A program made the translations under genes and the position numbers. 64,000 nt of DNA from Escherichia coli. Its GTDB lineage: Bacteria > Pseudomonadota > Gammaproteobacteria > Enterobacterales > Enterobacteriaceae. Of the stretch, positions 1 to 62,140 are shown piece after piece. The notes below the pieces were generated by a model. It had not been told where the DNA came from and did not search any database. It saw nothing but the letters and a program-made list of their open reading frames with translations. Positions within the stretch are counted from its first letter, which is position 1. Each line of letters begins with the position of its first letter. The DNA is taken from the NCBI RefSeq assembly GCF_003790525.1, contig NZ_CP033635.1; one strand, 5' to 3'.

Positions 1-175
<175 letters not shown>

Positions 176-550
176 TAGCTATGTGGGTGGCTCATCGCTG
201 ACGGCATGTATGCGTAACAGAGCATCTGTATCATCCGTTTGACGTTTTCGTCGGCGATCCTGCCAGCTATTCGGACATCTTGTGAAACCCAAAGGCAGCG
301 GCTGACGAAGCTTATCCGGTATCCTCTCGCAACAAAGGTACATGTACCATCTACTTTTTGGGCGGCCATTGTCGACAGATTCTTAAGTAGAACAGCTAAG
401 TTTAGATTTAGGAAAAAGTTGTTAAAATCAAGCAAATACTTATCATCATCACTTGATTTCGTAAACGCAAAACTACGATACTATTAACAAATTCTTCTAT
501 GCATTCTTACCGAATGTTGGCGGTAGCGTGCTTAATCACTCGGATTTAGT

Positions 551-3500
551 ATGAAAAAAAATTCTTTAAATGTGATTTTGGATACTGTTTTCTCGGCGAA
601 AAGCATCAATGGTGAGAAATCTCATTCTTTTATATCGTATAAATTAGTTAAAGCTGTAGAAAATTTAAGTGGATATGACTTGGATCTTTTCCTCAATCGT
701 GCGATAAACCATCCTAACTTCCCTAGCAATATGGATTTTTCCTTACGAACAGTTTTTACAATTGAACAATCTAACACTATTGAATTTAAAAATTTCATTT
801 CAGAATTGGTGTGGTACAAGCATATTTTCATACGATATAAAAAACACCTTAATGATATATTATCGGCAAAGGCAAGACTTGAGAAGTTAGTTCTTTTCGC
901 AACAGGTAGTGAATGTATAAAATATTTAGATGAAATAGAAAGCTCTTATGGAGTTAGTTTTTGGAGCATTGATGCTCGTCTCTTAATAAATAAAGTTTTG
1001 CTTAACGAAAGCAATGGGTTATATGTTAAATCAATTCTATCTAAAACCCACTATAAACTTACAGAGTTTATGTTACAGCAGCTATTATTTAAGCATCAAG
1101 TACATAACTTTGATGATTTTTCAAAGAACCTTATAAAAATACTAGATGATATGCGCACCACTCAAGATAATGGGTATGCTAGAAATTTAGCTGATGGTAT
1201 TTCATCCTTTTTAATACCTTTAGAGTTTGATAAAAATATAGATCTCAAAAATAGAACCTTAGCACCATTTACCAACCTTCCTTTAATAGATCAATTTATC
1301 ATATTCCAGAGAACTATAAGCGATTTACAACTTCATGGAAATGGTTTAAGAAATAGCGAGTTAAGCTTAATTGCAGAAATTAACAGCTTTATTAAAAATA
1401 ACTATCTCAACAATATTTTAGATGGAAGAGAGCGTAATATAGAGAATATTGATGAACACTATAAAAGTGTTATTCGACGTTATACTATAGGTGATTATAC
1501 TGGGTGTATTTCAGAAATAAATTCAGTTCGAACGCAGAAGACAATTTTGCCATTAATTGAAATATATGCAAAATCCCATGTGTATCTTGATAAGAAAATT
1601 TCAGACTCATGCATATTCAATAAATTAACAAACTGGCTTATAGCAATTATAAAATGCGACAGACGCGCTGGAAAATACATCGATGAATTTGAACTTTTAG
1701 CATCTAAGATATATTTCAATTCAAATTCATCCTCTCTATTCTTCACATTATATAATTTAATAAGTGATAACCATAATAAATTAAACATATCTCGTATAAA
1801 TCTAACCAAAAATGGTTCCTTTGTAACATCCCTTCATTTGAATATAACAATCAAGGAACTATGGACTGAACTTGGAATAAAAGAGAATGAGATACCAAAA
1901 TATCGATTATTTAAATTCAAAGACCTAGCAAATCTATCCTTTGATGAAATCAAAAAACACTACGAAGTATACAATGATAATGTAATAATTCGCTCTGAAT
2001 ATTTAAAAGATTATACTAACTTTTTATTAGAAAATGAAAAGTATGAATTATGCATCCAATTTATAGCTGAAAACTGCATCGGCAACCCCGCAAATTATTA
2101 CTACTTCCCAATCCGAAAAATAATTGATTTTGTAAAAGACAATATTTTTGACTATGCAAGCGTGGCCTTATCTATATTGATAGATATTTTTGTCAAAAGC
2201 ACATCAAACACTTCAAATGAGCTTCTTCTCGAAAGTTATGAGAGTTTAGTAGATATTTCAAATATTAATAGGCCATCTACCCATTATTGCTCTAAGCAAT
2301 TAACTCCATTAGAGCACTATTTCCTTAAGTTTATCTGTATACCTTCCGTGATGGATTCAGACCCTTCATTCACAGGCACGGACGACTTGAAGAAGGAAAG
2401 AATTGCTATTATAGATCTATTATTAAAAGAACACGATGATGCAGATTTATTGAAAGAGAAAGACGAAATTATAGATGAAATATCATTCGAAGAAATAAAA
2501 ACAAAATATGAGACAGGAAAAATATTTGTTGATATAGAAAATTTAAAACGGGCAAAGCTTGAAAGATACAGATATTATTTTGATGCACTTAAGGATTCGC
2601 TTATTCTCGGACTAGAACCACCTGAAGACTTTGCTTTAATTACAGACGATGGGAATATCACAGCCATTCCATCTGGCGATACAAACTCTATAATCCATGA
2701 ACTTCTAAAAGAACTAATCTCCGATTTTGTTAAAAATGAAAATTACGGTCTTGATAAATATTTGAGTGCAGATATACGGCATGGTGTTTTTGAAAATCAA
2801 CTCAGATCAAGTGCTGAAAAATCGCAATTAATAACTGATATGGATGGTACTGGACAGTATTCGAAAAGCAATTTAATTATTGAGACATATCCATTAATTA
2901 ACCCTATTATAAATAACGAAATAGGGACAGCAATAGCTGATTTCTCTTATCACTTTGACATTGAATTGGCTAAAGCCAATTCCTGGTTCAATGTCAAGAC
3001 AATGCTCATAAGTGAATCACAGCAAGGTATGATTGATTTCCTCATTTCTGTTGATATGTTTAATTCATTTAAAGCAGCAGTTTCAAATCAAGCATCTTTT
3101 GAGAAGTTTTTTGACGCTTGTATTAACTTCATGTGGGAAAGAACGTTCAGATGTTTGAATGATATTAAAGAGCGATTGCATTACGAATTTAAGAGGAATA
3201 TTTTAGATTTAATTGCCACTCTTAGGCATCAAATTGATATCTATAGAAGACGTAGTTCCATGAGAGAAATCCAGGAGAAAATTGACCTCTTGGCCGAAAG
3301 CATTAATAAAGAAATTGCAACAGTCTGCGATTGGTTAAATGTACTTGAGTATAACGAGGAGAAAATATATAAAATATCATCCGTGATGCAGGCATGTAGG
3401 AAAACTTTTTTTAATATACACCATTGTTCTGATGATGCTATCGTTTTTGATTCAATGTATCATGATGATGAACCAAAATTATCTTATAAAGAAGCCAAGC

Positions 3501-3826
3501 CTCTAATCACATCAATAATAACAGCGTTAAACAATGCTATGGCCTATGGTAATAAAAAAATCTTTATCAGTATTAAGCCTGAAGAAAAGTCATGGAAAAT
3601 AACCATCAGAAATTTGATAATTGAGACAAAGAACAGAACTACCAACCAAATTTTACAAGAGATTGATGATAAAATAAAACGAGGGGATAATAGTCTAAAT
3701 ATAAAAGAAGGCGGAGCTGGAATATATAAAATATATGATTTATTATGTTCATTACCGCAAAGATTTAATGTGAATCATTGCATCCAAAATAACGAATTCA
3801 TTTTAAATATTGAGATAAAGAAATGA
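551..3826 (+). CDS. Large sensor protein with C-terminal histidine-kinase-like ATPase core (Detocs DtcA-like); N-terminal ~850 aa of unknown, probably helical-repeat, sensing function
   Basis: 1091-aa ORF, strongly AT-rich. C-terminus carries an N-box-like motif (ITALNNAMAYGN, compare EnvZ NAARYGNG) and a G2-like GGAGIY motif; a candidate H-box (ERLHYEFKRNILDL) lies ~100 aa upstream. Stop overlaps next start (ATGA at 3823-3826). Confidence 0.6.
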   Translation: MKKNSLNVILDTVFSAKSINGEKSHSFISYKLVKAVENLSGYDLDLFLNRAINHPNFPSNMDFSLRTVFTIEQSNTIEFKNFISELVWYKHIFIRYKKHLNDILSAKARLEKLVLFATGSECIKYLDEIESSYGVSFWSIDARLLINKVLLNESNGLYVKSILSKTHYKLTEFMLQQLLFKHQVHNFDDFSKNLIKILDDMRTTQDNGYARNLADGISSFLIPLEFDKNIDLKNRTLAPFTNLPLIDQFIIFQRTISDLQLHGNGLRNSELSLIAEINSFIKNNYLNNILDGRERNIENIDEHYKSVIRRYTIGDYTGCISEINSVRTQKTILPLIEIYAKSHVYLDKKISDSCIFNKLTNWLIAIIKCDRRAGKYIDEFELLASKIYFNSNSSSLFFTLYNLISDNHNKLNISRINLTKNGSFVTSLHLNITIKELWTELGIKENEIPKYRLFKFKDLANLSFDEIKKHYEVYNDNVIIRSEYLKDYTNFLLENEKYELCIQFIAENCIGNPANYYYFPIRKIIDFVKDNIFDYASVALSILIDIFVKSTSNTSNELLLESYESLVDISNINRPSTHYCSKQLTPLEHYFLKFICIPSVMDSDPSFTGTDDLKKERIAIIDLLLKEHDDADLLKEKDEIIDEISFEEIKTKYETGKIFVDIENLKRAKLERYRYYFDALKDSLILGLEPPEDFALITDDGNITAIPSGDTNSIIHELLKELISDFVKNENYGLDKYLSADIRHGVFENQLRSSAEKSQLITDMDGTGQYSKSNLIIETYPLINPIINNEIGTAIADFSYHFDIELAKANSWFNVKTMLISESQQGMIDFLISVDMFNSFKAAVSNQASFEKFFDACINFMWERTFRCLNDIKERLHYEFKRNILDLIATLRHQIDIYRRRSSMREIQEKIDLLAESINKEIATVCDWLNVLEYNEEKIYKISSVMQACRKTFFNIHHCSDDAIVFDSMYHDDEPKLSYKEAKPLITSIITALNNAMAYGNKKIFISIKPEEKSWKITIRNLIIETKNRTTNQILQEIDDKIKRGDNSLNIKEGGAGIYKIYDLLCSLPQRFNVNHCIQNNEFILNIEIKK

Positions 3827-4272
3827 AAATTCTTCTTGTTGAGGATATTGAATATAAGCGTGATAAGGTGATCGGTTTACTAGAGTCTATTTCTGCCGAT
3901 GTATCAGTCGATGTAGCTAAATCTTATGTTTCGGCAGTAAATTCCGCAACCAGTAAAACTTATGATCTTATAATATTAGATATGAGCCTTCCCACTTACG
4001 ATAAGGGGCCTAATGAAAATGGAGGTCGCTTCAGAGTGTACGGAGGGAAAGATATTATTCGCAAGTTAATGAGAGGAAAAGAGCATCCAGTAGTTGTGGT
4101 TTTAACACAACATACAACTTTTGGTGAAATTGGTGAGCAAAAAAATACTGACACTCTATCACAAGAGTTGAATGCTTTAATGGGATCAAAATTTATAGGT
4201 ATTGTAAAATATGACTCAACTAAACCTCAATGGAAAGATGAAATAAAAAAAGTCGTACAGGATTTGTTATGA
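3823..4272 (+). CDS. Stand-alone receiver (REC) domain protein (Detocs DtcB-like)
   Basis: 149 aa; KILLVEDIE N-terminal acidic pocket, YDLIILDMSLP with candidate phospho-acceptor Asp53, downstream VVVLT. Start and stop are coupled by ATGA overlaps to both neighbours. Confidence 0.6.
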   Translation: MKILLVEDIEYKRDKVIGLLESISADVSVDVAKSYVSAVNSATSKTYDLIILDMSLPTYDKGPNENGGRFRVYGGKDIIRKLMRGKEHPVVVVLTQHTTFGEIGEQKNTDTLSQELNALMGSKFIGIVKYDSTKPQWKDEIKKVVQDLL

Positions 4273-5432
4273 TTAAAATATTAATAGTTGATGACAATAA
4301 ATCTAGAATTGAAAAGCTAAAATCTAGCTTAACTGAACTCATCACAAAAAACATGATAAGGATTGATGAGAAATATACAAGTGACGCCGCAAAAATCGCG
4401 CTCAAGTTAAATCAATATGATTATTTAATTCTTGATGTCTTTTTACCTAAAAAAGATAACTATAGCCCAGATGAAAGAAATGGATTAGGTCTTTTAAAAC
4501 AAATAAATTCAGATTCTAAATTTTACTCTCCAAAAAAAATAGTTGGCATAACTGCATATCTGAATGATATATCCAGATATGAATCCGAATTCAGAGAATA
4601 TGCTTCAATTATATTCGAGGCTCGACGTAATGATACTGGATGGCTTGAATCACTCAAAAAAATCATTGAAAAGGATGTTGAATCTCAAGTAAGTTATAAT
4701 CTCAATGAAAAAGATAGTGTTTTAATAACAGTACACGGTATAAGAACCTACGCACCTTGGCAAAATACCATAGAAGAAAAAATAACCAATATATCAAATA
4801 AATTTAACTATATAAAATTCAATTATGGTTTTCTAAATATTCTTTGTTTTTTATTCCCTCCGACTAGACATCTATTTGCAAGAAAAATAATCCAAGACAT
4901 ACGAATTACAGTGGAATCAAATAAGAATAAAAGAATTTATATTATTTGTCATAGTTTTGGTACCTACCTTGTATATTGTGCCTTAAGTAAACTGACACAT
5001 ACGGATGCAAAAATTGAATGTTTAATTTTTTCTGGTAGCGTATTAAAACGTACTACCTCATTGAAAACATTAAAGCAACATTGTAATGCAATAATAAATG
5101 ACTGTGCTGTAAGTGATTATATTTTATTACTATGTAAAATGTTAGTCATTGGCTTGGGCGATGCAGGCAGAAAAGGGTTTATTGAGCCAAATGATGGTGT
5201 TTTCATTAACCGCTATTTTAAAGGAGGACATTCAACTTACTTCGAAGATAAAGATTTCATAGAAGTGAACTGGCTTCCTTTAATTTTTGACAATAAAAAT
5301 ATCGCGTCACGAGATGAAAGAAAAAATCATATTTTTTCCGATGTCACCAATGCTTTGCAAAATATAATTGAATATTTAAAAATACCAATATGGTTATTTT
5401 TTTCTTTTTTATTGATAGCACTGGTATTATAA
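4269..5432 (+). CDS. Receiver (REC) domain fused to predicted alpha/beta serine hydrolase (lipase/esterase-like) with C-terminal transmembrane anchor (Detocs DtcC-like effector, non-PNP)
   Basis: 387 aa; N-terminal REC (KILIVDDN, YDYLILDVFLP Asp56). C-terminal part has VLITVHGIRT (oxyanion-hole-like HG), nucleophile elbow ICHSFG (Ser229, nt 4953-4955), later GGHSTYF (candidate catalytic His) and a hydrophobic tail IPIWLFFSFLLIALVL. Confidence 0.6.
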   Translation: MIKILIVDDNKSRIEKLKSSLTELITKNMIRIDEKYTSDAAKIALKLNQYDYLILDVFLPKKDNYSPDERNGLGLLKQINSDSKFYSPKKIVGITAYLNDISRYESEFREYASIIFEARRNDTGWLESLKKIIEKDVESQVSYNLNEKDSVLITVHGIRTYAPWQNTIEEKITNISNKFNYIKFNYGFLNILCFLFPPTRHLFARKIIQDIRITVESNKNKRIYIICHSFGTYLVYCALSKLTHTDAKIECLIFSGSVLKRTTSLKTLKQHCNAIINDCAVSDYILLLCKMLVIGLGDAGRKGFIEPNDGVFINRYFKGGHSTYFEDKDFIEVNWLPLIFDNKNIASRDERKNHIFSDVTNALQNIIEYLKIPIWLFFSFLLIALVL

Positions 5433-5458
5433 TATCACTGCACATTAAAAATCATATT

Positions 5459-5484
5459 GGAGCTTCCCTCATAAAGCTCCAATA
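5459..5484 (+). terminator. Candidate stem-loop downstream of the three-gene operon
   Basis: GGAGCTT-ccctcat-AAGCTCC inverted repeat 27 nt after the stop at 5432; no clear T-run. Confidence 0.3.
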
Positions 5485-5911
5485 TAAAACACCATCATTT
5501 CAATAGTACCTGCAGCTAATTAAAACTAGTCAACCGAAAAAATTAATCACTTTAAACTTTAGTATGCACTTATACTTTCTTAATAATAGAAAAACACTTA
5601 CAAATAAATTAATCATGTCAATCTCCGTAACTACAACCTCGGAAAGTATGTAAACAGGAATCATTACTGAAAAAAACACGATTTCAGCAGAATTCTAGAA
5701 ATATCCTGTGCTGCTGCCGATACCAACTTTCGTATATACTACCCTTCACGTTCCTTCTCGTTTTTATAAAACTATTCATTTATAACTATCAATAGGCATC
5801 ATAACCAATGTAAGTGTAAGTACTGGTGAACGAGTGTCAATGGAGTTAAAAGTATCACTTCATCCTGCTAAATATAAGTTATCCTACGTTTTAATATACT
5901 AGAACTCAAAA

Positions 5912-6877
5912 TTAGAATGGTTTGTTAATATTAATAGATTTACCATTGATATCTTTTGACACCTTAAAAAAATCTATACCTTTTATCCACTGACATAACT
6001 GTTGTAGTGTTTCCATTGCCTGTTCTAACTCATTTTTTTCAATTCTAACGCCCCCATGATGGCTACAGGAATTTAATAATTCCTGAGCTAGAGTGATGTC
6101 ATTCTTCAGCTTATTAGGCAGACCGAGAAAATTAATCACCCTCGACAAACTCCCAAGCATTAACTTTTGATAGTCTTCTTCAAATTCCTTTTCAGCCCTA
6201 ATATTTACTAACATCAAAACATACTCAAGATAACGCCGTGCTGTATTTCCCTTTTCTTGTAACGCATCTCTATCATACTCTTTAATATCACTCAATTCCT
6301 GTAGTAGAAAATCAAACTTAGCTATTGCCAAGTTAAGATTGATGTTATGCATTAGCAATTCGGATGCATGATTGCTAACAGGTACACGATTTGGTGGACG
6401 TATCATTATAGCCGTCGTGTAACAATTTATATTTGGTATCTGTATAAATTCCTCACCGGAACGCGTAACACGTTGAACTTCTACCATATAGTGGCCAAAT
6501 TTATCAATCTCATATGACCGACAACGAGCAGAATATAATTTATTTAGCTTTTTCCTGTCTTGATAATATGATTTTATTAATACAAAAAATGCTCTTTCGT
6601 GCTCAATAATTAAAATAGTCTCTATTGAAGCATGGTACAACCATCCGTTATTCCATGTTAATTCAAGCTGTCTATTTCCATCTTTAAAATCAATTTTAGT
6701 TATACGATCCCAACTTCCTCTATCAATAAAATCGACAATATTGCGCCCAAATCCTTGATAGTTATTTTTAACAATGTGCAATAGTACTGCCTTTATTTTA
6801 TCCCAATCATGAATTTCTTTTTCATATTCACCATTTAATATATTCGTTAAATCACTGTGAAAATTTTCATATGTCAT
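5912..6877 (-). CDS. Hypothetical protein (island cargo, no recognisable motifs)
   Basis: 321-aa ORF with ATG at 6877, AT-rich like the neighbouring operon, directly downstream of the integrase on the same strand. Confidence 0.55.
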   Translation of the reverse strand: MTYENFHSDLTNILNGEYEKEIHDWDKIKAVLLHIVKNNYQGFGRNIVDFIDRGSWDRITKIDFKDGNRQLELTWNNGWLYHASIETILIIEHERAFFVLIKSYYQDRKKLNKLYSARCRSYEIDKFGHYMVEVQRVTRSGEEFIQIPNINCYTTAIMIRPPNRVPVSNHASELLMHNINLNLAIAKFDFLLQELSDIKEYDRDALQEKGNTARRYLEYVLMLVNIRAEKEFEEDYQKLMLGSLSRVINFLGLPNKLKNDITLAQELLNSCSHHGGVRIEKNELEQAMETLQQLCQWIKGIDFFKVSKDINGKSININKPF

Positions 6878-6978
6878 AAGTATCTCTTTTTAGATAAAAT
6901 TGGATTTCGACAAGTAGACGTTGATAACAACAAGACTGGTTAGATAATTTAATCATTGATGCAACGTTTAGCGTTGAA

Positions 6979-8163
6979 TCAATTGACATCATTACCAATT
7001 CTTCCAATGCAATCAGCATACCACTGCATCATCTCCCTCCGCCCTTCCAGATACAAAGCATGGTTGTACGTCCCACGAATCGCATTCTTATCGACATGCG
7101 CAAGCTGGGTTTCAATCCATGCCGTATTGAACCCTTCCTCGTGCAAAATCGTACTCATCGTGTGACGGAAACCATGCCCCGTTACCTTCCCCGTATACCC
7201 AATCCGTTTGAATACCTGATTCATACTCGCTTCACTCATCGTCTTGCGGGGATCATTTCGCCCTGGGAATACCAGTGGATATTGCCCAGATATCACCTTG
7301 AGTTGTTGTACGATTTCCAGCGCTTGGGTAGATAGGGGGACAAGGTGAGGCCGTTTCATCTTCATACGCTCTGCAGGTATTTCCCACACTGCTTTTTCAA
7401 GATCAAACTCACTCCAGAAAGCACCTCGTAGCTCGCCAGTACGAACTCCTGTAAGGATCAGCAGACGAGCGGCAAGAACAACTAACGGGCTTCCTGTGTA
7501 GCCTGCGAGAGCTTTAAAGAAGTCTGGTAACTCCTCAACAGTAAGGAAGGGATAATGCTTCGATTCATGCCCTGACATTGCGCTGGTTAGATCCGCTGCA
7601 GGATTGTATTCCGCACGACCGGTAACGATGGCGTAACGAAAGACTTCACTGCAACGCTGGCGAACCTTCTTGGCCTTCTCTGTCGCGCCACGGCTTTCCA
7701 TTCGACGTAGCACATTCAGCAGAACCAAAGGCTTGATGTCATTCACCGGCAGTTGGCCAATATAAGGGAAAATATCTTTATTGAAGGCTTCGATAATGTC
7801 GGAGGCATAACCTTCTGACCACCGGCTCACCTTCGTTCCGTGCCATTCAAGTGCCACAGCCTGAAACGTATTATTGAGCTGCACATCGCGAACCAACTTT
7901 TCTTCTTTCTTGGCAAACGATGGGTCGATACCTTCGGCCAGCTTTTTCTTGGCTTCATCACGCAGTGCCCTCGCTTGTGCAAGGGACACTGCCGGATAGA
8001 CACCAAAAGCCATACGTTTCTCTTTTCCATTGAAGCGATATTTCATCCGCCAGTATCGAGAACCAGAAGGAACAACTTCAAGATACAAGCCTGCACCATC
8101 TGCTAGCTTGTAGGCTTTCTCTCTGGGTTTAGCAGCATCTACCTGTCGAGCATTAAGCTTCAT
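6979..8163 (-). CDS. Site-specific tyrosine integrase, P4-like family
   Basis: N-terminus MKLNARQVDAAKPREKAYKLADGAGLYLEVVPSGSRYWRMKYRFNGKEKRMAFGVYP is typical of P4-type integrases; C-terminus has GHGFRHT and LAHVDKN...RGTYNH catalytic-region motifs. Start placed at ATG 8163 (AGGGAG 9 nt upstream); lies 164 bp from the tRNA 3' end. Confidence 0.9.
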   Translation of the reverse strand: MKLNARQVDAAKPREKAYKLADGAGLYLEVVPSGSRYWRMKYRFNGKEKRMAFGVYPAVSLAQARALRDEAKKKLAEGIDPSFAKKEEKLVRDVQLNNTFQAVALEWHGTKVSRWSEGYASDIIEAFNKDIFPYIGQLPVNDIKPLVLLNVLRRMESRGATEKAKKVRQRCSEVFRYAIVTGRAEYNPAADLTSAMSGHESKHYPFLTVEELPDFFKALAGYTGSPLVVLAARLLILTGVRTGELRGAFWSEFDLEKAVWEIPAERMKMKRPHLVPLSTQALEIVQQLKVISGQYPLVFPGRNDPRKTMSEASMNQVFKRIGYTGKVTGHGFRHTMSTILHEEGFNTAWIETQLAHVDKNAIRGTYNHALYLEGRREMMQWYADCIGRIGNDVN

Positions 8164-8326
8164 TGGGGGCATCTCCCTGGACCGAACACAGAATGCCCCC
8201 ACTTATGCCCCCAACTGCGACTTGATTTCGGTTGAGTCCAGTTGATAACAGGAGATAAGATACGGGCCAGAAACCGCAGTATACGGGCTTTTAGTTGATT
8301 TCGGTAGACTTGGGAAGAGTTTGAAA

Positions 8327-8402
8327 TGGTGCCGATAATAGGAGTCGAACCTACGACCTTCGCATTACGAATGCGCTGCTCTACCAACTGAGCTATATCG
8401 GC
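8327..8402 (-). tRNA. thrW: tRNA-Thr (anticodon CGU)
   Basis: 76-nt minus-strand sequence GCCGATATAGCTCAGTTGGTAGAGCAGCGCATTCGTAATGCGAAGGTCGTAGGTTCGACTCCTATTATCGGCACCA folds as a cloverleaf with anticodon loop TTCGTAA and CCA end. Confidence 0.9.
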
Positions 8403-16249: not shown

Positions 16250-16287
16250 TGCTGCCGGATGGCGTTTAATCGCCTTCCGGCAGTTTC
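16250..16287. terminator. Stem-loop between convergent pepD and prfH
   Basis: CTGCCGGATGGCG-ttta-ATCGCCTTCCGGCAG inverted repeat followed by TTTCATCC. Confidence 0.4.
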
Positions 16288-16295
16288 ATCCTTCA

Positions 16296-16910
16296 TTATC
16301 CTTCGATAAAAGCCATCCCTGTGAACGTTCGTCGCGGGTTGCCACGTTCAATCTGGTGATGGAACATTCGCCGCTGCGATTTCAGCGCCGCGCTATTTTC
16401 CTGTTGCTGTTGTTCCAGCTTCCAGGCAATCAGTAATCGCGCCAGCCGTTTGTTAGCATGCTGACTGCGCTCTGACTGAACCTTCACGCTAATACCGGAT
16501 GCCAGATGCGTGGCGCGTACCGCCGAGTCGGTTTTATTGACATGTTGACCGCCCGGCCCCGACGAACGCAGCGTCTCATAACGGATCGCGTCGGATTGTT
16601 CCTGCTCATCAGCGGTAAAACGCCCAATGCCCAGAAACCAGTTTTTGCGCCCATGATGAGGCCGATACGGACTCGGACAAATCCACTGGATAGTGCCACA
16701 CCAGCTTTCGCTTAGAGCCCATGCGTTATCGCCATCCAGAGAAATCAGCGCCGAACGCATTGTGTCAGGATAGCGCCCCGCTTCTGTTTCCAGCACCGTT
16801 ATCGCGACGTCTTGTCGGGTAGCTTCTTTAATCAACCTGTCCAGCGCCTTTTTCACTGCCAGGCAACATTCTTCCGGCCCCTGAGCTGAGGAGAGTTGTA
16901 GCAAGATCAT
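16296..16910 (-). CDS. prfH: Peptide chain release factor homolog PrfH (full length)
   Basis: Translation from [21 protein letters not shown]... contains the release-factor GGQ motif ([16 protein letters not shown]); ATG overlaps the upstream rtcB-like stop (ATGA). Confidence 0.85.
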
Positions 16911-18058
16911 CCTTTTTTCCCTCCACTGTTTTTGAGCGTTAGCACCGGACGCAGTCGCGCGACAGGAATAATTAACCCAGCCTGCACCAGACATTGCACC
17001 ACGCTTTCAGCCGATTTATAAGCTTGTGGCGCTTCTTCAAAGATGAGTTGTTTATCGCGACAAATTACCCGGCTGCCAAGTTCAGTACGTGAGAGCTGCG
17101 TCGCTGTGTATTTCGCTGCCAGACGCCCTTTACACTCGGTGCGCCCCCATTTACGCCCAGCCCCATGCGCCAGCGAATGCAATGTTTCCTCACTCCTGAC
17201 GGGCTGAACCAGCCAGGAGTAATCACCGCGTGAACCGGGAATAATCACCAGACCGTTGTCATCCGGTGTGGCACCTTTACGATGCAACCAGCCCTGTTGA
17301 TCACCGATTCGACACGCGCTAACAAAGTTATGCGCCACATCCAGAACCGAATTACCGTTGGCCTTAATCTGTTGCATTATGCGCAAAGCGATCAGCTGGC
17401 GATTAATACGCGCAAACGCCAGCGCATCATCATGTTCCACAATATAACTTAGCGCGTCGTCACTGCCTTCAGGCAAACCATGATGCGAAAACGAGGCAAT
17501 ATGCCGCTGTAAAATAGACTGGCCCAAACCCCGCGAGCCGCTATGAACCAGCAGTTGCAGATGCTGCGCATCCAGACCTGTCAGTGCAAACAGTTCAGCG
17601 TCGATAATTTCATCAACTTGTTGCAGTTCTGCGAAGTGGTTTCCGCCACCGATGGAACCCAGCGAGCTGCGCCACGGATGCTGTGCTAACGCTGACGGCA
17701 GGTTTTCCTCCAGCCAGCTTTCTTCAGCAACGTCATCCAGCGCAGATAATCGCTTTTCAAACTTATCGGCGTTGTATTTGCGCGCGAAAATATCTGTTTG
17801 CCATAGCGCCATACCGCAGCCGATATCATTGCCGACCAGTGCCGGGTAAAAACGGCCTACGGAGAAGAACGCTGCGCCAATCGGATAGCCGCGTCCGGGG
17901 TGTAAATCTGGCATCCCTACTACGCGTTGCATGTCGGGTAAATTTGCCGTGGTGTGTAATTGTTGGATCGCTGAACTCTCGATCCACAGGTCATCAGATG
18001 CGATGGTAAGTACCGCATCAGATAAGGGACGAATATATTTGCCCATGTACCATTCCAT
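16907..18058 (-). CDS. RtcB-family RNA ligase homolog (ykfJ/rtcB2-type), full length
   Basis: 383-aa ORF translationally coupled to prfH; conserved RtcB-like His/Cys/Gly-rich segments (e.g. [19 protein letters not shown]). Start may be at the first or second ATG. Confidence 0.8.
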
Positions 18059-18236
18059 TTATGAATAAAAATCAGGAAATGGCAGACGAATCCAGGGCAA
18101 GAAAAAAAGAATTAATCCTGGAAAGGTCTGCAAAGAGTCATTGATAAAGGATTTGTCATGATTTACCTCCTTGCAGTTTGTGGAATAAGAAAACGCGCAC
18201 ATACTAGGCGGGCGTTATTTTCTTTGCAAGCTGGAT

Positions 18237-18698: not shown

Positions 18699-19098
18699 TC
18701 AAAAACGCATGCGAAACGCTTCTGCCATTTTCCCAATTTTATGCATTTGGTTGTTATCTCGAGCCAGTTTATGAGGTTCAGGTTTCAGAATGGCAATGAG
18801 CAACCATGCTTGCTCATCAAACGCACCCTGACAATATACCAAATGCGCTTCGTCATTCGTTCTGCTGAATTGGCGCAACTGTGGCGGAAATGGATTATTC
18901 ACATTTGCCAGATGAATATGAGCAACTCGCTCAAATTTGATTAATGGCCAGGTAAACGAGTCGTCGTAGGAGTGCATCGCGACCAAATATATCTGGCAAA
19001 ACACCGTCACGCTTATAGGAAATAAAATCCGCCGTTAACGCATCAAGTTCCTCTGCTGTAAGTTGCAGGCGAATAAGTTTTGTTTTGAATACCCGCAT
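18699..19098 (-). pseudogene. yafO: yafO toxin gene interrupted by a single-base frameshift
   Basis: ATG at 19098, coupled to the yafN stop, encodes MRVFKTKLIRLQLTAEELDALTADFISYKRDGVLPDIFGRDAL, then stops after 13 more codons. The rest of YafO (YDDSFTWPLIKFERVAH...FRMRF) continues in the +1 frame; the frames meet at a CTCC run near 18969-18972. Confidence 0.6.
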
Positions 19099-32595: not shown

Positions 32596-32920
<325 letters not shown>

Positions 32921-59967: not shown

Positions 59968-60465
59968 TTATACAATGATACGCTCCCCGGCACTAAAATC
60001 CGTTACGTCCCCCGCCCAATCGATGGGATATAACCCCTTCGCGACATCGCGATGAAACGTTGAGAATGGCCAATCACTCACTTGCTTTACCCAGCCATGT
60101 TTTACTGGATTTATATAAATATAATCAACATGATGGCGATAGTCTTTGGTATTGCGGATGGCGTGCTCCCAAAAACGCGGTTGCCAGATATTTTGCAATC
60201 CACAAGCATGGGTGAACTGTTTTTTAATCTCCCGCCAGCGAGAGGAAAAATCATCATCGCTTTCGGGTAATGTCCAGATACAGTGCATATGCTCCGGCAA
60301 AACTACCCAGGCGTTAATTTCAAAAGGTCTGGCTCGCTTAACGTTAATAATGACTTTACGGAGCATCTGGAACTGAGCGGTCAGAAGATGGCTTCGACGA
60401 TTTCGTAGGTTAACCGTGAAAAACCAGGTTCCCCCTTTGATGTAATAACGACGATATTCAGACAT
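59968..60465 (-). CDS. rayT: REP-associated tyrosine transposase (RayT/TnpA-REP)
   Basis: 165-aa translation MSEYRRYYIKGGTWFFTVNLRNRR...VVLPEHMHCIWTLPE... with the HuH motif (PEHMHCIW); flanked by REP elements on both sides. Confidence 0.85.
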   Translation of the reverse strand: MSEYRRYYIKGGTWFFTVNLRNRRSHLLTAQFQMLRKVIINVKRARPFEINAWVVLPEHMHCIWTLPESDDDFSSRWREIKKQFTHACGLQNIWQPRFWEHAIRNTKDYRHHVDYIYINPVKHGWVKQVSDWPFSTFHRDVAKGLYPIDWAGDVTDFSAGERIIV

Positions 60466-60560: not shown

Positions 60561-60643
60561 GTAGGCATGATAAGACGCGCCAGCGTCGCATCAGGCATCG
60601 GTGCACAATTGCCGAATCCGGCGTGAACGCCCTCTCCGTCCTA
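60561..60643. repeat. BIME (two REP palindromes) between rayT and yafL
   Basis: GTAGGCATGATAAGACGCGCCAGCGTCGCATCAGGC ... GCCGAATCCGGCGTGAACGCCCTCTCCGTCCTAC. Confidence 0.6.
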
Positions 60644-61862: not shown

Positions 61863-62140
61863 ATGATTCAAAGGGATATTGAATACTCGGGACAATTTTC
61901 AAAGGATGTAAAACTTGCACAAAAGCGTCATAAGGATATGAATAAATTGAAATATCTTATGACGCTCTTATCAATAATACTTTACTGCTTCCAGCTGTTT
62001 ATAAAGACCACCCGCTGCAAGGTTCATGGAAAGGTTATCGCGATGCTCATGTCGAACCGGACTGGATCCTGATTTACAAACTTACCGATAAACTTTTACG
62101 ATTTGAGAGAACTGGAACTCACGCGGCGCTATTTGGGTAA
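61863..62140 (+). pseudogene. yafQ: yafQ toxin gene interrupted by a single-base frameshift
   Basis: N-terminus MIQRDIEYSGQFSKDVKLAQKRHKDMNKLKYLMTLL is YafQ. After CTCTTATCAATAAT the frame shifts; the remainder (INNTLLLPAVYKDHPLQGSWKGYRDAHVEPDWILIYKL...AALFG) continues in another frame to TAA at 62138-62140. Span is 278 nt, not a multiple of 3. Confidence 0.6.

Follow-up and report, generated by a model that had tools for sequence, protein, structure and literature searches.

An intact rtcB2-prfH rescue-and-repair operon in Escherichia coli SMS-3-5 and its putative translated leader

The genes rtcB2 and prfH lie side by side in a stretch of 64,000 nucleotides (nt) of Escherichia coli DNA (NCBI RefSeq assembly GCF_003790525.1, contig NZ_CP033635.1), which is called the window hereafter and to which positions refer unless another sequence is named. 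Taken together, the evidence makes it very probable that the two genes are an intact and functional copy of the E. coli RtcB2-PrfH rescue-and-repair operon, preceded by a leader that is proposed here. The window corresponds to NC_010498.1 251042-315041 of E. coli SMS-3-5, reverse-complemented, and the 14-kb stretch around the locus matches that strain base for base. The pair as such is an already known and characterised anti-ribotoxin system and is ordinary in the species, and the EcRtcB2-EcPrfH system of strain ATCC 25922 shares with it the site between yafP and pepD, the gene order, the ATGA overlap and the protein lengths of 379 and 204 amino acids (aa) (PMC9304027, PMC9223846). The two strains differ upstream, where ATCC 25922 lacks yafNO, whereas SMS-3-5 keeps yafN together with a frameshifted yafO.

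Description of the operon goes back to 2006, when its translational coupling and the ~1-kb deletion in K-12 were reported and intact pairs were listed for CFT073, 042 and UTI89 (PMC1586002). Tian et al. (2022) have found that EcPrfH releases the peptide only from 70S ribosomes with 16S rRNA cut between A1493 and G1494, that it is inactive on, and unable to bind, intact 70S ribosomes, and that EcRtcB2 re-ligates damaged 30S subunits and not cleaved tRNAs, the opposite holding for RtcB1; the complex of EcPrfH with the damaged ribosome has been solved at 2.55 Å, and in vivo the pair reverses the toxicity of colicin E3-like toxins in a Q122- and H294-dependent manner (PMC9304027). According to Maviza et al. 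(2022), deletion of the chromosomal genes makes ATCC 25922 sensitive to colicin E3, and the operon gave no protection from tRNA-targeting colicins (PMC9223846). The sequence-only reading of this DNA, from which the present analysis started, had called the role in ribosome rescue and repair a proposal; this is right in kind and understated, as the role has been demonstrated with near-identical proteins by in vitro, structural and in vivo work (PMC9304027, PMC9223846, PMC13166195).

By the steps shown for the near-identical ATCC 25922 proteins, a colicin E3-type or CdiA-CT toxin would cut 16S rRNA between A1493 and G1494 and the ribosome would stall. PrfH, being RF2-like and devoid of domain 1, would then enter the A site, read the cleaved, 3'-phosphorylated A1493 and hydrolyse the peptidyl-tRNA by means of its GGQ motif. 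Upon release of the peptide the 70S ribosome could be dismantled, and RtcB2, a GTP- and metal-dependent 3'-phosphate/5'-OH RNA ligase, would reseal the 16S rRNA in the free 30S subunit. The SMS-3-5 RtcB2 may be expected to ligate ColE3/CdiA-cleaved 16S rRNA in 30S as its 94%-identical ATCC 25922 counterpart does. The further steps that concern promoter and leader, given below, are those that we infer.

The gene pair and its products

On the (-) strand, rtcB2 occupies 16907..18046 and encodes an RNA ligase of 379 aa from the release-factor-H-coupled RtcB subfamily (RefSeq WP_000521582.1), and prfH occupies 16296..16910 and encodes the 204-aa peptide chain release factor H, its start overlapping the stop of rtcB2. 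The letters TCAT at 16907-16910 of the (+) strand read ATGA on the (-) strand, where the rtcB2 TGA (16909-16907) and the prfH ATG (16910-16908) overlap, in agreement with the coupling that had been proposed from the letters alone. For comparison, loci of 14 other genera have been picked by RtcB2 identity (83-60%), the leader being disregarded; a contig search based on PrfH had drawn mostly RF1/RF2 via the GGQ domain (of its loci, only L007-L013 are true PrfH loci), and the loci were then chosen by RtcB2 homology. The 4-nt overlap, or a close juxtaposition of the two genes, is kept in 14/14 of these other loci.

The open reading frames (ORFs) as listed run from 16907 to 18058 (383 aa) and from 16296 to 16994, both on the (-) strand, the latter with an internal ATG at 16910. 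The sequence-only reading had taken the first as a 383-aa RtcB-family ORF, of which the family and the ORF coordinates have held and the start, four codons too early, has not. A start at 18058 has been rejected in favour of the second in-frame ATG at 18046, which is almost certainly the true one, because RefSeq places the start there, the alignment of the NCBIfam equivalog model begins at residue 5 of the 383-aa ORF, the great majority of the 120 best homologues measure 377-379 aa, the in-frame upstream ATG is missing in the rtcB2 of Citrobacter, Providencia and Pseudomonas, and the published catalytic H294 lands on the right residue only in the 379-aa numbering. For annotation, the correct RtcB2 start is accordingly 18046, with a product of 379 aa.

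The models matched by RtcB2 are those specific to RtcB2 and not to RtcB1, namely NCBIfam NF007153 with 639.1 bits (cut-off 407; profile positions 1-378 of 379) and TIGR03073 with 623.1 bits (cut-off 271.8; profile positions 2-356 of 356), and a match to Pfam RtcB (PF01139) is obtained in addition. Against ATCC 25922 RtcB2, 356/379 residues are identical (94%), with 23 differences and no indels. The motifs NDIGCG (73-78), GGNHF (134-138), VHSGS (167-171), AHNF (238-241) and AHGAGR (293-298) are present and align with those of the active site in P. horikoshii and T. thermophilus RtcB; the metal-binding and nucleophile residues D74/C77, H137, H168, H239 and H294 are conserved, H294 being the same residue as in EcRtcB2. 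The RtcB1-RtcA operon belongs to the same superfamily and shares the ligation chemistry, but RtcB1 is only ~28% identical, is regulated by sigma-54/RtcR, has the cyclase RtcA as its partner and acts in the repair of tRNAs, not of ColE3-cut 30S.

PrfH matches the equivalog TIGR03072 with 328.6 bits (cut-off 166.65) over profile positions 1-200 of 200, and its residues 1-204 align with residues 1-204 of chain 8 in PDB 7SA4, the cryo-electron microscopy structure of EcPrfH, with five substitutions. From ATCC 25922 PrfH it differs at 5/204 residues (97.5% identity), without indels and exclusively in the N-terminal third. The PrfH of strain Seattle 1946, which we take to be ATCC 25922, differs from it at exactly the five positions where 7SA4 does. 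Only residues ~116-305 of RF2 find a counterpart, so that PrfH comprises RF2-like domains 2-4 and domain 1 is missing; the Pfam RF-1 domain spans residues 106-194, with GGQ at residues 120-122. At the reported contacts to the 3'-phosphate of cleaved A1493, to h18/S12 and to C1914, i.e., A9, Q10, G11, P12, R52, S53, R83, H85, H86, R88, K89, N90, R181, H184 and R189, the protein is identical to EcPrfH, and like EcPrfH (subfamily 1) it ends at 204 without a conserved C-terminal tail. The full-length equivalog match and the end-to-end alignment with 7SA4 bear out the earlier description of a complete PrfH with the GGQ motif. Truncation relative to functional orthologues, the point on which that description hung, has been looked for by alignment and not found, both proteins being full length and collinear with those of ATCC 25922.

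Across the 1,752 bp of rtcB2-prfH there is no frameshift, stop or indel. Codon differences from ATCC 25922 amount to 44 synonymous and 23 non-synonymous in rtcB2 and to 17 synonymous and 5 non-synonymous in prfH; being mostly synonymous, they suggest that both genes are under purifying selection, a rough estimate and not a formal dN/dS. Between the convergent genes prfH and pepD an inverted repeat (CTGCCGGAAGGCGATTAAACGCCATCCGGCAG, 16252..16283, (-) strand) is predicted to form a hairpin and is identical in SMS-3-5, ATCC 25922 and K-12. It has no U-run on the prfH side and has not been called by the terminator scan; a shared terminator of prfH and pepD is a possible role of this predicted structure.

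The leader upstream of rtcB2

The yafP-rtcB2 intergenic region measures 190 nt, and a candidate sigma-70 promoter is placed within it at 18201..18229 on the (-) strand, with the -35 element TTGCAA (18229-18224), a 17-nt spacer and the -10 element TAGTAT (18206-18201). It scores 8/12 against the consensus, below the threshold of the generic scan. The pattern TTGNNN-N17-TANNNT recurs 53-73 nt upstream of the leader in 12/13 genera for which the upstream sequence could be used, irrespective of the gene that precedes the operon. A hairpin with a U-run just past yafP (~18190-18215) has been considered as a yafP terminator and set aside: since the -35/-10 pair with its fixed 17-nt spacer is conserved across genera even where yafP is absent, the region is read as the operon's own promoter, which may act as a terminator as well.

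Downstream of it lies a leader mini-ORF of 15 codons (18112..18159, (-) strand), encoding MTNPLSMTLCRPFQD followed by its stop codon and preceded by the strong Shine-Dalgarno (SD) sequence AAGGAGG at 18172-18166, then TAAATC and the ATG. It is unannotated in RefSeq and in the curated K-12 record, and the peptide string has not been found in the searched literature. A mini-ORF of 13-15 codons with the same SD and spacing is present in 14/15 genome loci, including those of Limnobaculum, Leminorella, Providencia, Proteus and Pseudomonas sp. YH-1 with their unrelated neighbour genes, and it accompanies the operon in every examined locus with an intact prfH (Enterobacterales and one Pseudomonas). 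In Intestinirhabdus alba (locus L090, 2290-4312), the mini-ORF and segments 1-2 of the leader RNA, which are defined below, have decayed, and prfH is split into parts of 144 aa and 61 aa, with rtcB2 still encoding 379 aa; decay of the leader together with a broken prfH fits a co-dependence of leader and operon.

A further 24 leaders have been collected from metagenomes by a pattern scan in which the N-terminal codons and segment 3 were left free; as the pattern demanded the SD, the ATG and a TTTGCRG core, the presence of these in the metagenome leaders is not independent. The spacing from AAGGRG to ATG is 7 nt in 38/38 leaders, and length differences among leaders of the common frame are multiples of three. 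The ATG frame is open through segment 2 in all 24 distinct sequences, compared with 2/24 and 16/24 for the other two frames and 57% for shuffled bodies. Residues 2-8 of the mini-ORF vary freely. In Pseudoalteromonas and in a second lineage (the L104 group), the motif CUUUGCAGG is read in another frame, as PFAG instead of LCR, and the ORF again crosses the motif and stops 15-17 nt later. A change of frame in two lineages with the span of translation and the distance to the stop kept points to RNA and ribosome position, not to peptide sequence, and the pattern as a whole is what would be expected if translation across the RNA element matters.

In the betaproteobacteria Massilia (L009) and Paucibacter (L010), a strong SD and a 19-codon ORF (MQKLNINALFLGLAGYILH and MQKNTTSLWAGSTVAGLFI, at ~2700-2960 of each locus) stand upstream of rtcB2, different in sequence and without the CUUUGCAG motif. 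From these ORFs one may suggest that the leader principle predates the enterobacterial leader sequence.

Four segments of the leader RNA, all on the (-) strand, are considered to take part in alternative pairings. Segment 1 (18176-18167) overlaps the SD of the mini-ORF and can pair with segment 2; segment 2 (CUCUUUGCAGAC, 18126..18137) lies inside the mini-ORF and pairs with segment 1 or segment 3; segment 3 (UUCGUCUGCCAUUUC, 18076..18090) would pair with segment 2 through GUCUGC (helix P1) and with segment 4 through UGCCAUUUC (helix P2); and segment 4 (GGAAUGGUACAUGGG, 18042..18056) comprises the box just 5' of the rtcB2 start together with the start codon. Structures have been computed by ViennaRNA folds and by RNAalifold on an anchor-free MAFFT alignment of 13 leaders, and segments have been taken by anchor-based extraction.

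RNAalifold gives one consensus helix for the 13 leaders, in which GCAGAC of the mini-ORF pairs with GUCUGC ~60 nt downstream, with two compensatory pairs. In 31/31 unique leaders, the stretch from the mini-ORF stop to the rtcB2 AUG contains a single hexamer that pairs fully with the segment-2 hexamer; its distance to the AUG is 38-50 nt unless an insertion lies between them. Pair types found for P1 are GCAGAC/GUCUGC, GCGGAC/GUCCGC, GCAGGC/GCCUGC, GCAGAU/AUCUGC, GCAGGUC/GACCUGC and G-U intermediates, with 3/6 pairs changed on both sides, 100% paired, and the observed covariation is reached by 0/500 shuffles. The type GCGGAC/GUCCGC occurs naturally in Proteus. The figure of 100% is partly circular, because segment 3 has been located by its pairing, and the independent support for P1 consists in the positional uniqueness and the RNAalifold helix. 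In P2, UGCCAUUUC, which lies 3' of GUCUGC and overlaps it, faces GGAAUGGUA just before the rtcB2 AUG; the helix is 84% paired when the register is kept fixed and has three covarying pairs, a level that 1/500 shuffles reaches. The anti-box CCAUUUCC of the leader opposes the box at the rtcB2 ribosome-binding site (RBS), and when RBS boxes are swapped between leaders (GGAAUGG/GGAUUGG variants), the own box is the better partner in 16 cases and as good as the swapped one in 3, and is never the worse of the two. Since P1 and P2 both use GUCUGC, they are mutually exclusive. For the pairing of segments 1 and 2 (P0), CUGCAA(A)G next to the SD is complementary to CUUUGCAG in 96% of the cells compared.

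In the predicted fold of the free leader, 1:2 and 3:4 are formed, and the rtcB2 start codon and the box upstream of it are buried. For 13 species, the computations put the cost of exposing the rtcB2 RBS at 8-13 kcal/mol. When a ribosome footprint masks mini-ORF codons 1-2 or 5, segment 2 becomes able to pair with segment 3, and the cost in E. coli falls to ~6, whereas it stays at ~9-13 for the other codons and the stop; with the same footprints it is ~4-7 in most Enterobacterales and up to ~11 in Phytobacter and Cronobacter, and the RBS stays mostly closed under footprints on later codons or the stop. The modelled on/off pattern is alike in most of the 13 species. No Rfam family matches the leader region; a weak match to the Salmonella sRNA (small RNA) STnc350 on the opposite strand, at 20.7 bits where the gathering score is 60, has been put down to chance, as the Salmonella locus is without STnc350.

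From these predictions the following switch may be proposed. In the resting leader the 3:4 pairing would bury the RBS and start codon of rtcB2. A ribosome held at the start or the first codons of the mini-ORF would free segment 2, 2:3 would form and the rtcB2 start would be exposed. A toxin-damaged or drug-stalled ribosome could be held in this way, which would raise expression of the repair genes when ribosomes fail, and prfH would then be translated by coupling through the ATGA overlap. Ribosomes cut by colicin E3 are mainly defective in decoding after initiation and would be expected to linger at the leader start.

Related leaders and alternative readings

A leader of comparable layout has been described in P. 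aeruginosa, where PA5471.1 is followed by armZ (PA5471, RtcB-like) and PA5470 (prfH): armZ is derepressed when ribosomes stall on the leader and likewise when the leader carries an early amber codon or a deletion, ribosome-targeting drugs induce armZ by way of the leader, ArmZ binds the repressor MexZ, and PA5470 has been reported to counteract azithromycin stalling (PMC12057347, PMC13041342). One review regards the leader control of armZ as apparently unique to MexXY. Common to both systems, with a putative mini-ORF and modelled pairings on the E. coli side, are a short leader ORF before an RtcB2-family gene and then prfH, a promoter of constitutive type, and alternative pairings set by the position of the ribosome. 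The likeness to PA5471.1 is one of layout; sequence has been compared only with the leader of Pseudomonas sp. YH-1 (MQALITLCRSRLA), which aligns with the enterobacterial leaders. An RtcB-family protein of P. aeruginosa, presumably ArmZ, is 60% identical to RtcB2 without gaps and keeps the catalytic motifs.

The systems differ in that the published PA5471.1 model is transcriptional, with a 3:4 terminator, whereas the 3:4 helix of the E. coli leader covers the rtcB2 RBS and AUG, which, together with the lack of a terminator, suggests translational control. In addition, the leader region of P. aeruginosa is longer (positions 1-226 have been deleted in published constructs), and ArmZ has an extra anti-MexZ role. 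No paper in the searched literature mentions both RtcB2 and ArmZ, and the E. coli RtcB2-PrfH papers searched mention no leader, upstream ORF or native promoter.

Attenuation of ermC and cat combines a leader peptide with a four-segment RNA switch. The logic of this translational attenuation is the same, with 1:2 and 3:4 as the off state, a stalled ribosome that frees segment 2, and a 2:3 pairing that exposes the RBS. In ermC/cat, however, segment 1 lies inside the leader ORF, whereas segment 1 of the E. coli leader overlaps the leader's own SD, which would place sensing at initiation or at the first codons. The sequences are unrelated, and no drug-specific arrest peptide is evident. On comparative grounds, the leader is probably of the PA5471.1-like or ermC-like type.

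Several observations weigh against reading the locus as a functional operon under a sensing leader. The functional evidence stems from the ATCC 25922 proteins, which are 94% and 97.5% identical, and not from the SMS-3-5 alleles. Residues 281-287 of RtcB2 (17185-17205) carry four differences in seven residues (QPVRSEE against KPVANEK in ATCC 25922), just upstream of the catalytic H294 and in the densest bin of nucleotide differences (16 per 100 nt); recombination may have left a patch here, or the residues may belong to a surface loop on which diversifying selection acts. Single prfH or rtcB2 knockouts kept a low cleavage signal, and overexpressed RtcB2 alone complemented (PMC9223846), so that PrfH is to be regarded as an accelerator that is not strictly required; as an accelerator of repair it has also been described in a 2026 paper (PMC13166195). 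The function of the leader, i.e., translation of the mini-ORF and the switch, is a predicted one. Helix P0 is invariant, with no covariation seen among the leaders, and is a putative structure. The modelled opening is uneven by codon (weak at 3-4) and absent in Pseudomonas sp. YH-1. The opening cost of 11.6 kcal/mol for the E. coli rtcB2 RBS ranks 5/66 among the genes of the window (median 5.3) and is thus high, not exceptional; occlusion of the RBS has been dropped as a stand-alone argument, being indecisive at this rank. Finally, the terminator scan has found no terminator-like site on the (-) strand at 18047-18236. An intrinsic terminator as in the P. aeruginosa model has been sought by scan and by fold without a find; the 3:4 helix extends as far as the rtcB2 start codon, and the U-run falls within its loop.

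It is conceivable, though on balance doubtful, that mini-ORF and helices are conserved for reasons other than the sensing of stalling, namely for mRNA stability, as a standby or loading site, for a small peptide, or as a binding site for a protein or sRNA. The missing covariation of P0 and the missing terminator would agree with such a role, the modelled effect is modest and model-dependent, and the C-terminal LCR motif could point to a function of the peptide. That motif, however, is read as PFAG in two lineages with translation span and stop distance kept, the N-terminal residues vary freely, and P1 and P2 share GUCUGC and exclude each other; in P. aeruginosa, moreover, the downstream gene is derepressed if the leader is given an early stop or a deletion. 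As to the joint claim that the leader is a functional stalling or damage sensor, is the enterobacterial counterpart of PA5471.1 and is unreported for Enterobacterales, we regard the case for and the case against as evenly balanced.

A main role of the pair in the relief of ribosomes stalled by antibiotics or stress and not cut by toxins, with RtcB2 acting partly as a regulator like ArmZ, appears improbable. It draws on the action of PA5470 against azithromycin stalling, the binding of MexZ by ArmZ and the induction of armZ by drugs, and on the presence of the same type of leader here. CgPrfH of Capnocytophaga gingivalis (PDB 9MOR/9MQ4) shares with the present protein the PrfH fold, the GGQ domain and the pairing with RtcB2 (match E = 6e-40), and the Flavobacteriia PrfH subfamily rescues intact stalled ribosomes too (PMC12829566). 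CgPrfH, however, is extended by a conserved C-terminal tail and can in addition rescue ribosomes that are intact and sit on truncated mRNA (PMC12829566), whereas the PrfH considered here is tail-less; at 204 aa it is without the tail that goes with the dual function, and EcPrfH, from which it differs in five residues, neither binds nor acts on intact 70S. Furthermore, EcRtcB2 is a specific 30S ligase, and the operon is no shield against tRNA-targeting colicins. E. coli is not known to carry mexZ-mexXY, which also speaks against this role.

That the ORFs are intact by chance, in a locus which is silent or decaying towards the K-12/O157:H7 state, is highly improbable: roughly every second complete E. 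coli genome is missing much of the locus, so that its loss is tolerated, the neighbours yafO and yafQ are frameshifted in SMS-3-5, and RtcB2 carries the substitution cluster at 281-287, but the 1,752 bp hold no frameshift, stop or indel, functional residues are kept and substitutions are mostly synonymous, promoter and leader are intact with the architecture of other genera, and true decay, as in Intestinirhabdus, visibly breaks both prfH and leader.

Distribution, surroundings and meaning of the operon

The sequence-only reading had set the pair against truncated remnants in K-12, and alignment confirms these, with one deletion reaching across both genes. By BLAST, K-12 lacks 1,027 bp corresponding to window ~17840-16821, by which the 3' end of rtcB2 and the start of prfH are gone; the flanks are kept, and so are, at ~96% identity, the leader with its mini-ORF, ~69 codons from the beginning of rtcB2 and ~170 codons from the end of prfH, the two remnants being the pseudogenes ykfJ (b0235) and prfH (b0236). 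The junction of the deletion lies in imperfect 9-bp direct repeats (TACCCGGCA and TACCCGACA). K-12 also carries an insertion of 129 bp between window 18065 and 18062, i.e., 16-19 nt upstream of the rtcB2 start, and this insertion may be an ERIC-like element. A shorter, related insertion of ~60 nt with the same terminal sequences as that of K-12 (AAATAATTCGAGTT...CTTGAAGTATGACG) is found in Klebsiella spallanzanii (L088), and both insertions are lodged at one and the same place between segments 3 and 4 of the leader. Salmonella has an ERIC-like element, matched to Rfam V_AS5 with a sub-threshold 39.9 bits, on the upstream side of the promoter. The leader region seems to be a recurrent target of such repeats.

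Among complete E. coli genomes, 2709/5426 hold at least 80% of a 2-kb query of the locus, and the remaining ones fall into coverage classes of ~50% (K-12, O157:H7 type) and 42%, corresponding to at least two deletions. With only ~95% identity to most E. coli and 25 records at or above 99%, the DNA of the locus is unusually divergent for a core-position locus. The site dinB-(yafP)-rtcB2-prfH-pepD-gpt is conserved in Salmonella, Klebsiella, Citrobacter, Phytobacter, Kosakonia, Cronobacter, Entomohabitans and Superficieibacter, and rtcB2-prfH occurs in other gene contexts in Budviciaceae, Morganellaceae and Pseudomonas.

Disrupted toxin genes near the pair, to which the earlier reading had drawn attention, are indeed marked by RefSeq, where the type II toxin genes yafO (18699-19098) and yafQ (61863-62140) are frameshifted; their antitoxin genes yafN and dinJ are intact. 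The yafNO pair is missing altogether in ATCC 25922 and in several other genera. At 20572-59856 the window holds a complete Flag-2 lateral flagellar cluster (flhA ... lafA ... motA, lafU) adjoining dinB, of which K-12 keeps only a lafU pseudogene remnant. At 1-8402, a tyrosine integrase (6979-8163) comes after tRNA-Thr (8327-8402), together with an island that encodes a 1,091-aa hypothetical protein, a response regulator, an alpha/beta hydrolase and then an IS3 transposase. A match to an isrC-family sRNA at 1-90 is cut by the window end. Three matches to Rfam naRNA4 (REP-derived nucleoid-associated RNA) lie on the (-) strand at 32652-32846 and 60564-60641, one of them adjoining the REP-associated tyrosine transposase gene rayT (59968-60465).

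With the operon intact, SMS-3-5 is probably tolerant of colicin E3 and of CdiA-CT(ECL)-type toxins. The leader offers a concrete and mutable model for damage-responsive expression of rtcB2-prfH, whose regulation is not addressed in the searched E. coli papers. If the proposed function is true, it would link ribotoxin repair in E. coli with the induction of ArmZ/MexXY in Pseudomonas and would explain how ribosome damage is sensed. The layout of the leader suggests that the MexXY induction circuit of Pseudomonas may have been built on an ancestral ribosome-repair operon.

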